Shown here piece after piece: positions 7,272 to 18,927 of a DNA stretch of 58,508 nt. A program made the translations under genes and the position numbers. Source of the DNA: Escherichia phage KarinMuster_Bas82; the sequence record PQ850612.1, one strand, 5' to 3'. The notes under the pieces are model-generated. The model had not been told where the DNA came from, did no database searches, and saw only the letters and a program-made list of their open reading frames with translations. Each line of letters opens with the position of its first letter. Position 1 is the first letter of the stretch.

Positions 7272-7616
7272 TCAATTAACGTACTTCGCGATCAGTTTAT
7301 CACAGTCTTCGCGACAGGTAGCATACTTAAACAGGTCACTGGCTGCTTCTGCCCGGTAGTCAGTATCAATGGTGTAATGTTCATTAACATAGTTATAGGC
7401 TGCAAGGTAGTTACTGAACATCCCCGTGGTTACCACTTTCGGTTGTTCCCTTACGACCTTACCGTTAAACAGATATGCGATTAGCAAAATCAGACCACCG
7501 ATCACAGGACTTGTGAGAAATGCGATAAAGAACCATACACCAGGGTTACGACCTGTTTGTTTGGCAACACCCGCGACAACCAGACAGAAAAGAATCCATA
7601 AAATAATGAATAACAT
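7272..7616 (-). CDS. membrane protein
   Basis: 114-aa ORF, two N-terminal hydrophobic helices; downstream of conserved promoter. Confidence 0.5.
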   Translation of the reverse strand: MLFIILWILFCLVVAGVAKQTGRNPGVWFFIAFLTSPVIGGLILLIAYLFNGKVVREQPKVVTTGMFSNYLAAYNYVNEHYTIDTDYRAEAASDLFKYATCREDCDKLIAKYVN

Positions 7617-16226: not shown

Positions 16227-17246
16227 ATGAGTTACAAACAGAATTTTCGCGACGTTGGCGCATCAGATACATTCCTGTCTAACTTTTCTGTAAGTTACTG
16301 GCAGGATACATCACTGTTTGTCGGCACTCGTTATTTCCCGGTAGTTCCTGTTAATCAGGCTGCTGGTAAGTTTCTGACTTACCCGAAAGGGTATTTCGGT
16401 CGTCCGGTTAACTCCAAACGTGCCGAAGATGGTGTTGCTAACACTATTGGTTATAAAACCAAAAACCAGGGTTACACTGTTGATGACGATGCGATCCGTA
16501 TCTTCATTTCTGACAAAAAACGTGCAAACGTTCAGAACGGTCAGCAACTGGATATGGAAGCATCAGCAGTAACCACAGATGCGCTACTGATCAACAAAGA
16601 AGTGGATTTTGCTGAAAAATTCCTGACTGCTGGTAAATGGGGTCTTGATTTCCAGGGCAAAGACGCGTCTCCGTCCACGGGCGAATTCCTGAAATGGTCT
16701 AATGCGAATGCCGATCCGATTGGTGATATCCTGTCACGTCGTGTTGCGTTCTCTCTGGCATCCGGTGGTCGTCGCTGGAACAAAGCGCTGATGACGCTGG
16801 ACGTGTATGACGCACTGACCCGTAGCCCGGCTGTTATTGACCGCATTAACGGTGGTTCTACCACTCAGAATCCGGGGATCGTGACTAAACAGGCACTGGC
16901 TGCACTGCTGGAAGTTGACGAACTGGAAATCATGCAGTCCGTGGTCAACATGGCTGCTGATGGCGTTGAAGACAGTAACGGCAATCCGCTGTCAGACTTC
17001 CAGTTTGCTAAAACTGGTGTGCTGATGCTCAACTATGTTGAACCGACTGTTGGCAATATGAAACCTGTTGCGGCTGCGGGCTTCGTGTGGAACGAGTTCA
17101 TCGGTCTGGGCGTTAACAACGGTCCGTCTATCCGCACCTATCCTGGTGTTGAAGGTCGTCGTGGTAATTTCGTTGAAGCGGAATTTGCCATTGATGTTCA
17201 GATGGTTGCACCTGACCTGGGCGTTCTGTTCTACGACGCGGTTTAA
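16227..17246 (+). CDS. major capsid protein (putative)
   Basis: 339-aa ORF in canonical position; weak hairpin plus T-run follows. Confidence 0.6.
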   Translation: MSYKQNFRDVGASDTFLSNFSVSYWQDTSLFVGTRYFPVVPVNQAAGKFLTYPKGYFGRPVNSKRAEDGVANTIGYKTKNQGYTVDDDAIRIFISDKKRANVQNGQQLDMEASAVTTDALLINKEVDFAEKFLTAGKWGLDFQGKDASPSTGEFLKWSNANADPIGDILSRRVAFSLASGGRRWNKALMTLDVYDALTRSPAVIDRINGGSTTQNPGIVTKQALAALLEVDELEIMQSVVNMAADGVEDSNGNPLSDFQFAKTGVLMLNYVEPTVGNMKPVAAAGFVWNEFIGLGVNNGPSIRTYPGVEGRRGNFVEAEFAIDVQMVAPDLGVLFYDAV

Positions 17247-17265
17247 TAACAACTGTGGTATTATT

Positions 17266-17293
17266 AAGGGGTGGCTTATGCTGCCCCTTTTTT
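17266..17293 (+). terminator. weak terminator after capsid gene
   Basis: GGGG...CCCC hairpin then TTTTTT. Confidence 0.4.
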
Positions 17294-17308
17294 CATGAGG
17301 TTAAAATC

Positions 17309-17662
17309 ATGCGTAATTCATATGATCCGTCACTGAAATATGTTTTCACCCGTCCGATGCTGTGGAACGGTAAACAGATGTCCGCTGGCGATAAAGTATC
17401 AACATCAAAAGCTACCCCGGCTGTTTTAAATGCCCTTGTGCGTATGCGCCACATTGAACCAGCTACTGCGACCGTTGAAGAACCAGTGACTGTAGCAACC
17501 GAAGAATCGACATCAACCACATCTGCTGAAATCCGACGTGACGCGCCAAAAACCTATAACGTTTATGTTATGGGTATGCCGATGAATTCAGAATCGTTTA
17601 GTAGTAAAAGTGCCGCTGCTGAATGGTGTGAATCACAAGGCTTGACATATAACTATTCTTGA
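17309..17662 (+). CDS. hypothetical structural protein
   Basis: start at MRNSYDP with SD GAGG. Confidence 0.45.
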   Translation: MRNSYDPSLKYVFTRPMLWNGKQMSAGDKVSTSKATPAVLNALVRMRHIEPATATVEEPVTVATEESTSTTSAEIRRDAPKTYNVYVMGMPMNSESFSSKSAAAEWCESQGLTYNYS

Positions 17663-18077
17663 CCTATTGTTAAGTCAGTGACAGAACTGCATAGCAGACA
17701 CTATCACTTAATCGGTCGAAAGACGCCGGATAAACGTAACCGGCACATAACAGATAAGAGCATTGAGTTGTTTAAAGTGGTGCTGCGACGATTATCATAC
17801 ATCTCAGTGCTCTTATCGTTGTGGTGAATTGCAGTTCTCAGAAACAACCAGAAGATAAGCGCCTGGCACTGCAACCCAAACACTCGCTGATAAGGAGGTG
17901 ATCCTTATCTTGCTGGCGGGAAAGCCGCAAATCGTGGGTAAAGCATGTTGTGAAACATCCTGAACTGCGTGTCGTTTTACATAACTGGTTATTCACGTGT
18001 CACGCATAGGGGTATGTTGGGACGTCAGGTGTGGATGACCAGTTATGTAAAACCCTCATTATCACCCAGAGCCATTT

Positions 18078-18103
18078 GCCGTCTGTTTAAGACGGCTTTT
18101 TTT
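18078..18103 (+). terminator. rho-independent terminator
   Basis: GCCGTCT-gtttaa-AGACGGC then TTTTTTT. Confidence 0.6.
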
Positions 18104-18142
18104 CGTGCTAATATAACGAAAACATTTCTCACAGGTGATCAC

Positions 18143-18553
18143 ATGGCTATTACAGTTGAAGGTATTCGTTATTTGATCAGTGTCCCTGATGTTACTGATG
18201 AACAAATTCAATGGTACATTGACAACGGTTATACAAATCCTCTCAGTATTTGCGTCGCTCTCTGTGATTATATGGCGTCTATTGCCAGCAACGATACTGA
18301 CATTAAAGTAGGTCCGATCTCACTCAGCAGTAGTCAGTCAGCAGACGCCTGGAATAAACTTAAAAAAGATTTTATTTTACGTATTAATACTGGCGCTGAT
18401 TCAGGTGGCGGTTTGTTAGGTGGTTTTATGGGTGTCGGTGGAGCTACATTAACTGGCGCTGGTATGCAACCTGCTATTCAGCGTGGTCAGTTCGACAACC
18501 CACCTGTAACACTTGAAAGCGGTGGTCGTGCATTTAACGAGGGTGAACGGTGA
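18143..18553 (+). CDS. hypothetical structural protein
   Basis: start re-assigned to MAITVEG (SD AGGTGA) downstream of terminator. Confidence 0.5.
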   Translation: MAITVEGIRYLISVPDVTDEQIQWYIDNGYTNPLSICVALCDYMASIASNDTDIKVGPISLSSSQSADAWNKLKKDFILRINTGADSGGGLLGGFMGVGGATLTGAGMQPAIQRGQFDNPPVTLESGGRAFNEGER

Positions 18554-18927
18554 TGACAGACAAACGTCAAAGTGTCCTGAATGGTGTTACTCGTGCACTT
18601 GCTGAAGTAGGTGAAGATTTGACGGTAAAACGTGTGACAACAGTTCCCAATCCGTCTAATCCTACATTACCGGGTACAACCGTTACTGAATCGCATACGT
18701 GCCGTGGTTATATTTACCCATTAGAAAAGTGGGATCCGACTACTATGACCAGAATAACCACAACAATGGTAATTATGGATAGTCAGAGTTTTGAACCACG
18801 ATTCGTTCCCGATCGGGGGGATGTTGTGGTTGATGAACGTGGTAAAGAATATCGCCTTCTTGATCGTCAAAACCCACGATTGTTAGGGGATGATATGGCA
18901 TTTATTCACCCTGTTGGAGCTGCCTGA
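18550..18927 (+). CDS. hypothetical head-tail protein
   Basis: 125-aa ORF. Confidence 0.45.
   Translation: MMTDKRQSVLNGVTRALAEVGEDLTVKRVTTVPNPSNPTLPGTTVTESHTCRGYIYPLEKWDPTTMTRITTTMVIMDSQSFEPRFVPDRGDVVVDERGKEYRLLDRQNPRLLGDDMAFIHPVGAA

Follow-up and report, generated by a model that had tools for sequence, protein, structure and literature searches.

The intergenic island at positions 17663-18142 of Escherichia phage KarinMuster_Bas82 (sequence record PQ850612.1; the 58,508 nucleotides (nt) of this stretch are hereafter called the window) consists of hairpin and transfer RNA (tRNA)-like modules and forms a non-coding RNA locus, not a protein-coding gap. Its core, which comprises the helices P0, P1 and P2/P3 (about 17889-17973), is conserved, covaries and is absent from Rfam 15. 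The window element very probably belongs to a structured-RNA family that, judged from sequence matches, has at least 150 members in the phages and prophages of Enterobacterales. This family is apparently undescribed and widespread, and apparently more than a stray strong ribosome-binding site (RBS). To explain the whole, we tentatively favour, with rather more doubt than confidence, a folded RNA with an arm that would pair with the 3′ tail of 16S ribosomal RNA (rRNA) and, by docking a 30S subunit, would act as a standby or stabiliser element. All window features described below lie on the plus strand unless stated otherwise.

A covarying RNA family in enterobacterial phages

Family members were retrieved with TCTTGCTGRCGGGNAAGCCGY, an exact pattern that spans P1 and the junction preceding it and that occurs in at least 120 IMG/VR contigs and in 50 genome contigs. 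Twenty of the genome contigs hold true members, all from Enterobacterales, which score 58-100 bits with R1, a covariance model built from 11 lambdoid-prophage copies only, with the window lineage left out. The remaining genome matches, which are non-enterobacterial, score at most 28 bits, are about as numerous as expected by chance and were rejected. On the window copy R1 scores 49.5 bits (E of about 2e-11), and the match at 17893-17973 takes in a Shine–Dalgarno (SD)-like arm, the junction AUCUUGCUG, P1, and P2 enclosing P3. In all, 100 sources were searched with R1, the window among them, and each yielded a single strong match. A candidate second copy in the window (7409-7503 on the minus strand; 13.6 bits, E = 0.05) falls inside a 114-amino-acid minus-strand open reading frame (ORF; 7272-7616) and was taken as a chance hit. 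Members have been seen in siphophages, myophages and lambdoid prophages.

The helices P1, P2 and P3 were derived by inspection. P1 (17916-17928) is the hairpin GCGG-GAAAG-CCGC, which takes the form RCGG-GNAAG-CCGY in the family, with a loop that varies as GNAAG; among 73 distinct sequences its closing pair is A-U in 61, G-C in 10, G-U in one and another combination in one. P2 (17934-17937 with 17965-17968) is a G-U-rich helix that, over the span 17934-17968, encloses P3 (17945-17958), the hairpin AUGUU-GUGA-AACAU with a GNRA tetraloop. Across the 73 sequences, 93.3% of the alignment cells are paired, and 12 of the 17 pairs have changed on both sides. Such double changes affect four of the six pairs of the family P2, and compensatory changes are found in all seven pairs of the family P3. 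Compensatory cells number 207, compared with 63 +/- 8.5 in shuffles, and slid controls pair at 26-48%. An ungapped alignment made with MAFFT only concurs, with 90.9% of cells paired and nine pairs showing double changes. In phage 9NA, P3 reads ACGUU/AACGU, a U-A to C-G change relative to the window, and single-sequence folds of the copies in 9NA and in Klebsiella phage Carvaje predict P3 independently. The retrieval pattern placed no constraint on P2 or P3, on the SD-like arm or on the R-Y pair that closes P1.

Because U-G and G-U pairs are frequent in these helices, the functional molecule should be an RNA read from the plus strand. A minus-strand RNA mimicking the 3′ end of 16S rRNA was rejected: the U-G and G-U pairs would become A-C mismatches, and the T-arms and the terminator described below lie on the plus strand. 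The fold is conserved and aptamer-like, with covarying stems, a trait it shares with riboswitches.

Searches against Rfam 15 returned just sub-threshold microRNA and small-RNA noise for window positions 17000-18800 (E <=10), nothing on the motif for 15 family loci (E <=0.5), and only true tRNAs and a weak tRNA-Sec match for the relatives L012, L013 and L015-L017. A hammerhead-like CUGANGA core was considered and rejected, as it is broken in the variants with G in the closing pair and has no Rfam match. A full-text literature search with the motif sequence found no relevant paper, and word searches on SD-like phage non-coding RNAs were likewise unproductive.

Complementarity to the 16S rRNA tail

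The rrsH gene of E. coli K-12 ends in the 14 nt GGATCACCTCCTTA, of which TAAGGAGGTGATCC (17891-17904) is an exact reverse complement; the match to rrsH extends no further. This 14-mer occurred in none of 100 dinucleotide-preserving shuffles of the window, and by our own estimate about 4e-4 occurrences per window are expected by chance. Both results bear out an earlier note, made from the letters of this DNA alone, which had pointed to the match and judged it unlikely by chance. The hairpin that the note drew around the 14-mer is also there, but its stem of seven pairs and loop of seven nt need correction. P0 (GATAAGGA-GGTGA-TCCTTATC, 17889-17909), which carries the 16S-complementary arm with the stretch GGAGGUGAUC, has one further A-U pair, giving eight perfect pairs (17889-17896 with 17902-17909) and a loop of five nt. 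Its predicted energy is -11.2 kcal/mol (z = -4.2).

Comparison with the corresponding intergenic region of relatives, which the earlier note had proposed, found the core of the island kept. The stretch 17879-17970 is 95.7% identical to 9NA and P0 has the same sequence in 9NA and SP069, though the flanking genes are only 77-85% identical. In the Sashavirus phages Sasha, Sergei and Solent the sequence is GGTGACCC, which matches 16S rRNA over 11 nt instead of 14; the exact length of the match is not strictly kept within the genus.

Complementarity to the 16S tail is also a trait of the family, nearly all members of which carry AAGG(N)GGUGAUC just 5′ of the junction. For 86 distinct upstream sequences of the family, the predicted duplex with the 16S tail has an energy of -19.8 +/- 3.3 kcal/mol, compared with -6.1 +/- 2.3 kcal/mol (strongest -11.8) for 69 likely genes of the window; the window copy, at -25.8 kcal/mol, is the extreme of the family. 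Since the arm lies outside the retrieval pattern, its conservation is an independent observation. The strand that partners the arm in P0 is GUGUAACCCC in the lambdoid copies and UCCUUAUC in the window, and the arm is kept regardless, which argues for a sequence-specific partner in trans. The arm is predicted to be roughly half sequestered (mean predicted unpaired probability 0.44). Mimicry of rRNA by the window island as a whole was rejected, as comparison of the island with the E. coli rrn operon showed no similarity on the plus strand.

Proposed function and its main rival

Of 116 distinct loci, 76 have a gene that begins within 45 nt of the module and bears an SD of its own; in 16, the window lineage among them, a terminator comes first. 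In most relatives 12-34 nt separate the module from a downstream accessory gene, which is equipped with its own RBS and typically sits between the lysis and packaging modules of a lambdoid prophage. The downstream genes are unrelated to one another and include phrog_6581, phrog_571, genes for a DUF2829-type protein (phrog_1048, which we take to be associated with the anti-Thoeris protein Tad2), an HslV-like peptidase, a small terminase and an HNH endonuclease, and Rha/Ant-like genes; antirepressor-like proteins are among the products.

We propose, tentatively, that the G-rich arm AAGGAGGUGAUC would pair with the 3′ tail of 16S rRNA, as its complementarity suggests, and that a 30S subunit would thereby be held on the folded RNA without productive initiation. 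As P0 half-sequesters the arm, docking would compete with the hairpin. Where the module precedes an accessory gene, the docked 30S subunit might serve in cis as a standby ribosome or as a protective 5′ cap for the messenger RNA. In the window phage a terminator follows the module, which would therefore act within a discrete, probably abundant RNA just 3′ of the capsid genes, which are highly expressed.

Several observations weigh against 30S docking. The 73-sequence alignment was fitted to R1, and retrieval by an exact pattern partly accounts, as an ascertainment artefact, for the invariance of P1 and the junction. Every predicted fold has the arm partly base-paired. In 15 lineages the module and its own downstream RBS form predicted duplexes with energies equal to those of permuted pairs, and show no specific complementarity; an SD-sequestering expression platform, which would give a signal beyond the permuted RBS controls, was rejected on this result. 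Simple docking leaves the conserved P1-P3 fold unexplained, and seven loci have P1-P3 without P0 and the arm. Last, conservation of the arm is strongest not in the canonical GGAGG but in GGUGAUC, the part complementary to 16S positions 1530-1536, so that the arm could serve another partner.

The persistence of P1-P3 without the arm and the preference for GGUGAUC both fit the main rival, a real possibility though on balance an unlikely one: a structured RNA whose function lies apart from the 16S tail, be it a site for a host protein or RNA polymerase (antitermination, anti-Rho) or a processing or stability element. The arm would then be kept for internal pairing or protein recognition, and its likeness to an SD would be incidental. 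Further support comes from the riboswitch-like conservation of P1-P3, with covarying stems, conserved junctions and GNRA-type loops, and from the position of the module directly before genes or terminators, as in cis-regulatory leaders. The module also follows tRNA genes, tRNA-like elements and terminator hairpins, where processing would make new 5′ ends. This rival is at odds with the upkeep of 10-14 nt of 16S complementarity by way of GGAUGG, GGCGG and GGAGG and with differing partner strands, and no alternative pairing with the downstream RBSs was seen. The particular partners considered fit poorly. A CsrA site (ACARGGAUG-like in the lambdoid copies) was rejected because GGA is missing in several lineages. 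A boxA/nut-like signal was rejected as well, since the boxA-like GCTCTT lies upstream in just 18 of 71 lineages. R1 finds nothing genome-wide in HK022, where its best score (7.7 bits) falls inside a tail gene, and a put-type antiterminator was rejected accordingly. A leader peptide, a decoy and mosaic debris, which are taken up below, are less likely than this rival.

A further reading, distinctly improbable in our view, makes the element an uncatalogued class of enterobacterial phage non-coding RNA whose core would dock on the 16S tail and capture 30S subunits, either as a decoy or reprogrammer or as a portable leader. The stand-alone units would take the first role, and the modules before prophage accessory and anti-defence genes would take the second, as ribosome-recruiting leaders.

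Coding potential of the island

The earlier note had called the island poor in ORFs, and indeed none of 60 codons or more lies wholly inside it, the longest encoding 59 and 52 amino acids (minus strand) and 49 amino acids (plus strand). None of the four small island ORFs has a PHROG match. A 194-amino-acid ORF with a GTG start (17969-18553) enters the island by 174 nt; it was rejected as a gene, being an in-frame upstream extension of the ORF that starts at ATG 18143, with a frame that indels of non-multiples of three break in 9NA and SP069. The 136-amino-acid protein read from ATG 18143 matches phrog_21889 over residues 1-136 of a 136-position profile.

The TTG mini-ORF that had been pointed out 11 nt downstream is present in the sequence (17910-17963, 17 sense codons, TGA at 17961-17963), and its SD spacing is suitable, with TTG 17910 standing 11 nt past GGAGG and 5 nt past the 14-mer. 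Its standing as a real coding ORF did not survive comparison. Most members read UUG CUG ACG GGN AAG CCG UAA, with a stop after six codons, and the variants with a G...C closing pair run to nine or 17; a stop or Gln is read at this point because the codon tracks the closing pair of P1. At the start position, 28 arm-keeping loci, which belong to several lineages, have UGG, one locus has UAG and one has UUU. A search for every alternative codon there never found AUG, and found GUG only in seven copies that have lost the SD-like arm. The ORF differs from its 9NA counterpart by four substitutions. Three of them are non-synonymous, and two (UGU to CGU and ACA to ACG) together make up the compensatory U-A to C-G change in P3. 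The mini-ORF thus appears to be a by-product of the conserved P1 sequence and not a functional unit. A small protein gene on either strand was rejected, given the missing PHROG matches and the failure of the mini-ORF in these conservation tests.

The same comparisons make a translated leader (MLxGKP...) very unlikely. In that scheme a very strong SD would drive initiation at UUG 17910, and translation or stalling would remodel P1-P3 to give attenuation-like control of the terminator or gene that follows. The spacing between the end of the arm and UUG, mostly 3-6 nt, would suit it, and the 16-nt insert found between them in some copies is a self-contained hairpin. Most copies end in AAG CCG UAA (Lys-Pro-stop), a poor termination context, and the 16 loci in which a terminator follows the module would also be in keeping with attenuation. 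The scheme does not accord with the UGG codons in arm-keeping loci and the absence of AUG, the restriction of GUG to arm-less copies, an ORF of six, nine or 17 codons whose stop covaries with the closing pair of P1, or the mostly non-synonymous and partly compensatory substitutions relative to 9NA.

A promoter-to-terminator unit

A putative sigma-70-like promoter, TTGACA-17 nt-TATTGT (17642-17670), matches the consensus at 10 of 12 positions; its -35 element lies within the last codons of the upstream gene and its -10 element just past the stop codon. The form TTGAC(A/T)-17-TAT(T/C)GT is kept in four groups (Sasha-like phages, 9NA, SP069 and Carvaje), the site being known as a consensus match with a -35 element that overlaps conserved codons. 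At the other end stands the intrinsic terminator that the earlier note had recognized, GCCGTCT-GTTTA-AGACGGC followed by seven T (18078-18103, hairpin 18078-18096), with a GC-rich hairpin and a U tract. It is present in all relatives compared, including 9NA, SP069 and Carvaje, with an altered loop in SP069. Taken as bounds, the promoter and the terminator predict an RNA of about 430 nt. With its conserved terminator, and with a new promoter-like site after it in 9NA, the island looks like an insulated promoter-to-terminator unit. That site arises from a 22-nt insertion past the island terminator in 9NA (L004 2650-2678) and SP069, which makes a promoter-like TCGAAA-17-(TG)TAGAAT before the next gene; the window counterpart is TAATAT (18109-18114). 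The suggestion that the region may encode a small RNA thus gains support from both the promoter-to-terminator layout and a core that belongs to a covarying structured-RNA family.

Between the core and the terminator, a long hairpin module (17974-18053) has 23-nt arms that are 91% complementary and a 34-nt interior. It occurs in Sasha-like phages only, being absent from 9NA, SP069 and Carvaje, and no homologues were found outside the genus.

The Jedunavirus ZCEC13, an Escherichia phage, offers a parallel. Its homologous island (L017 1730-2276) contains module A (see below) and the core motif. A separate promoter, TTGACA-17-(TG)AATTAT, and a strong terminator bound this island, and the baseplate genes on either side are encoded on the other strand, which points to an independent RNA gene of about 510 nt. 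A segment of this island (L017 2121-2167) resembles helix 11 of 16S rRNA: cmscan matches it to small-subunit rRNA with E = 6e-8, and 29 nt of it align with E. coli 16S positions 254-282 at 86% identity.

Such units recall a ribosome decoy acting in trans, an abundant RNA that would titrate or mark the 16S tails of host 30S subunits and so shift translation late in infection. The copies in the window, 9NA, Carvaje and the Jedunavirus all lie in promoter-to-terminator units without an ORF before the terminator, duplex energies reach -25.8 kcal/mol, and the phage's own genes have weak SDs (mean -6.1 kcal/mol). Against this, most members form a leader directly before a gene, suggesting action in cis, and the RNA would have to be present in very many copies relative to the ribosomes. 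We regard a decoy as a poor candidate, about on a par with the translated leader.

Flanking modules and the tRNA connection

The island was segmented by alignment with eight relatives. Upstream of the core, 17673-17872 is a mosaic stretch in which replacements and insertions occur even between near-identical phages. In the close relatives PJ16 (L003 1920-2325), BDX09P1 (L006) and L011, 17673-17745 is swapped for 330-480 bp that bear a minus-strand ORF, of 145 amino acids in PJ16 and annotated there as hypothetical. The minus-strand ORFs annotated in PJ16, PDP46 and a Klebsiella phage have no PHROG match. Other insertions, at 17829, are found in PDP46 and L013.

Module A (17747-17822) is a long hairpin and corresponds to the inverted repeat of the earlier note, whose arms were found at 17753-17771 and 17799-17817. 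Its base, ACAACAG-GTAAG...CTTWCC-GTTGT, is conserved and its interior is hypervariable. Across phages the stems covary around some two dozen unrelated interiors of 35-70 nt, and between the window, AVIO78A and PJ16 the interiors are unlike while the arms are kept. The copies of P1 and Carvaje contain the T-arm-like GGTTCGA(A/G)TCC, and some module A interiors hold a tRNA T-arm, GGUUCGAAUCC. Copies lie at L015 1434-1518 (P1), L016 1701-1789 (Carvaje) and L017 1886-1990 (ZCEC13), and also in L009 and L018; hosts of the module include P1, Vi1-like Klebsiella phages, several 45-47-kb Salmonella phages, Jedunavirus and lambdoid prophages. A small hairpin seen in the sequence, CCGG-ATAAACGTAA-CCGG (17726-17743), forms the conserved 5′ flank of module A. 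The stretch around it (17713-17752) matches Klebsiella phages of about 157 kb at 93-100%, and phage P1 has the similar CCGGAACCGTAACCGGCAC.

Module B (17818-17875) is an inverted repeat in which a closing helix surrounds the hairpin TTCT-CAGAAACAACC-AGAA. The closing helix is TTGCAGT/ACTGCAA in the window and GTTGTGGTG/CACCACAAC in Sasha. Positions 17806-17867 are 82-87% identical to P1 69572-69633 (L015 1501-1562) and are matched in P7 as well. In P1 this stretch lies about 70 nt downstream of trnT, in the tRNA cluster of the ban operon, and the P1 annotation over it shows the opposite-strand gene plp only. Module B is also present in the P1-like plasmids of about 600 of 5426 complete E. coli genomes.

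Neither the window nor any of eight relatives searched contains a tRNA or transfer-messenger RNA according to ARAGORN, and the window has no match to RF00005. Carvaje carries a genuine tRNA-Ser (L016 1892-1976) at the island position, immediately upstream of the core. In the IMG/VR relatives L010-L012 a degenerate tRNA-like element with a canonical T-arm replaces window positions 17830-17865; cmscan gives it a weak tRNA-Sec score (17.8 bits), and ARAGORN finds nothing. The real tRNA-Ser in Carvaje and the degenerate element in these Sasha-like contigs indicate that the locus gains, loses and erodes tRNA genes.

That the whole is non-functional mosaic debris, decayed tRNA genes with an orphan RBS kept by recent ancestry or as a recombination linker, would suit the replacement and insertion hotspot at 17673-17872 and the tRNA-Ser or degenerate elements of relatives, and is barely credible given three helices maintained by compensatory changes in widely differing phage groups, a core better conserved than the adjacent structural genes, and the occurrence of the element in siphophages, myophages and lambdoid prophages alike.

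Genomic neighbourhood

The window phage is a siphophage of the Sashavirus/Nonanavirus (9NA-like) type, 97-99% identical to Sashavirus 536P12, Sasha, Sergei and Solent. The island lies between a 117-amino-acid gene directly on its 5′ side, which is itself preceded by the major capsid gene (phrog_1005, 16227-17246), and the gene starting at ATG 18143, which opens a block extending to the major tail tube gene. The RBS of the latter gene, AGGTGATC (18133-18140), is an 8-nt 16S complement that reaches the unusual GAUC part of the 16S tail. A terminator-like hairpin, AAGGGGTGGC-TTAT-GCTGCCCCTT with a T-rich tail (17266-17289), stands 20 nt past the stop of the major capsid gene. It is annotated as a terminator in Sasha and AVIO78A and probably lowers the expression of the genes 3′ of the capsid gene.

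In prophages, other hairpins recur directly 5′ of the core: AGCUCUUCACUGAGGGGCU; AGAGCC...GGCUCUUA, with a GCUCUUA resembling lambda boxA; and UUCC-UCCCGACAA-GGAA, the stem of which covaries. They are found at L019 7560-7600, in many lambdoid loci, and in L026, L046, L067, L101 and L125, and may be further parts of the RNA.

Comparison with known systems

Standby sites such as those of the MS2 coat and tisB +42 messenger RNAs combine a structural element with an accessible stretch that binds the 30S subunit independently of initiator tRNA, upstream of a nearby RBS that it feeds (PMC5934652, PMC6690012, PMC7708055). Known standby sites are unstructured, bound via protein S1 and without a long 16S complement, whereas the phage module has a conserved fold attached, its downstream sites are not obviously structured, and its binding to the 30S subunit is predicted.

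The STAB-SD of Bacillus cryIIIA and the 5′ untranslated region of E. coli ompA are SD-like elements, by a 5′ hairpin, that need no start codon and are thought to protect downstream RNA by 30S binding. The phage module resembles them in that tRNA or terminator hairpins often immediately precede it, at points where processing would give rise to new 5′ ends. It differs in having no sequence relationship to them and in its extra conserved P1-P3 fold, and stabilisation by the module is putative. In rpsO/S15 'entrapment' and at the thrS operator, SD/anti-SD pairing retains a folded RNA on the 30S subunit in a non-productive state. Both are operators through which host genes regulate themselves, and each has a true start codon and a known repressor protein; in the phage module neither a repressor protein nor a start codon is evident, and it has no match to an Rfam leader.

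Like ROOL, GOLLD and YrlA, the modules are structured non-coding RNAs found by phage tRNA genes, and module A shares with YrlA a long stem and a T-arm-like interior. They differ from these RNAs in their Enterobacterales hosts, their much smaller modular units, the 16S-complementary arm and the lack of an Rfam match; the sole match to the Rfam YrlA model is weak (25.6 bits, compared with a gathering threshold of 69) and falls on the tRNA genes of P1, not on module A. HK022 put and lambda nut boxB are similar in being small RNAs of two to three hairpins in a phage operon upstream of terminators, and the P1 pentaloop GNAAG loosely recalls boxB pentaloops. The phage module is unlike them in that its boxA-like sequence is inconsistent and most copies have no terminator following.

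Implications

Whatever the mechanism, this work adds a well-supported RNA family, together with hairpin and tRNA-like modules shared with P1, in regions that annotations leave blank or fill with spurious small ORFs. If the proposed mechanism is true, enteric phages possess a portable cassette of structured RNA, centred on a complement of unusual length to the mRNA-binding tail of the ribosome. This would be a new viral route to engage, or to protect against, the host machinery of translation and RNA decay, and the module could be a useful part for synthetic biology. In prophages the module precedes diverse accessory genes, and it may be a general device for the expression of such 'moron' genes.

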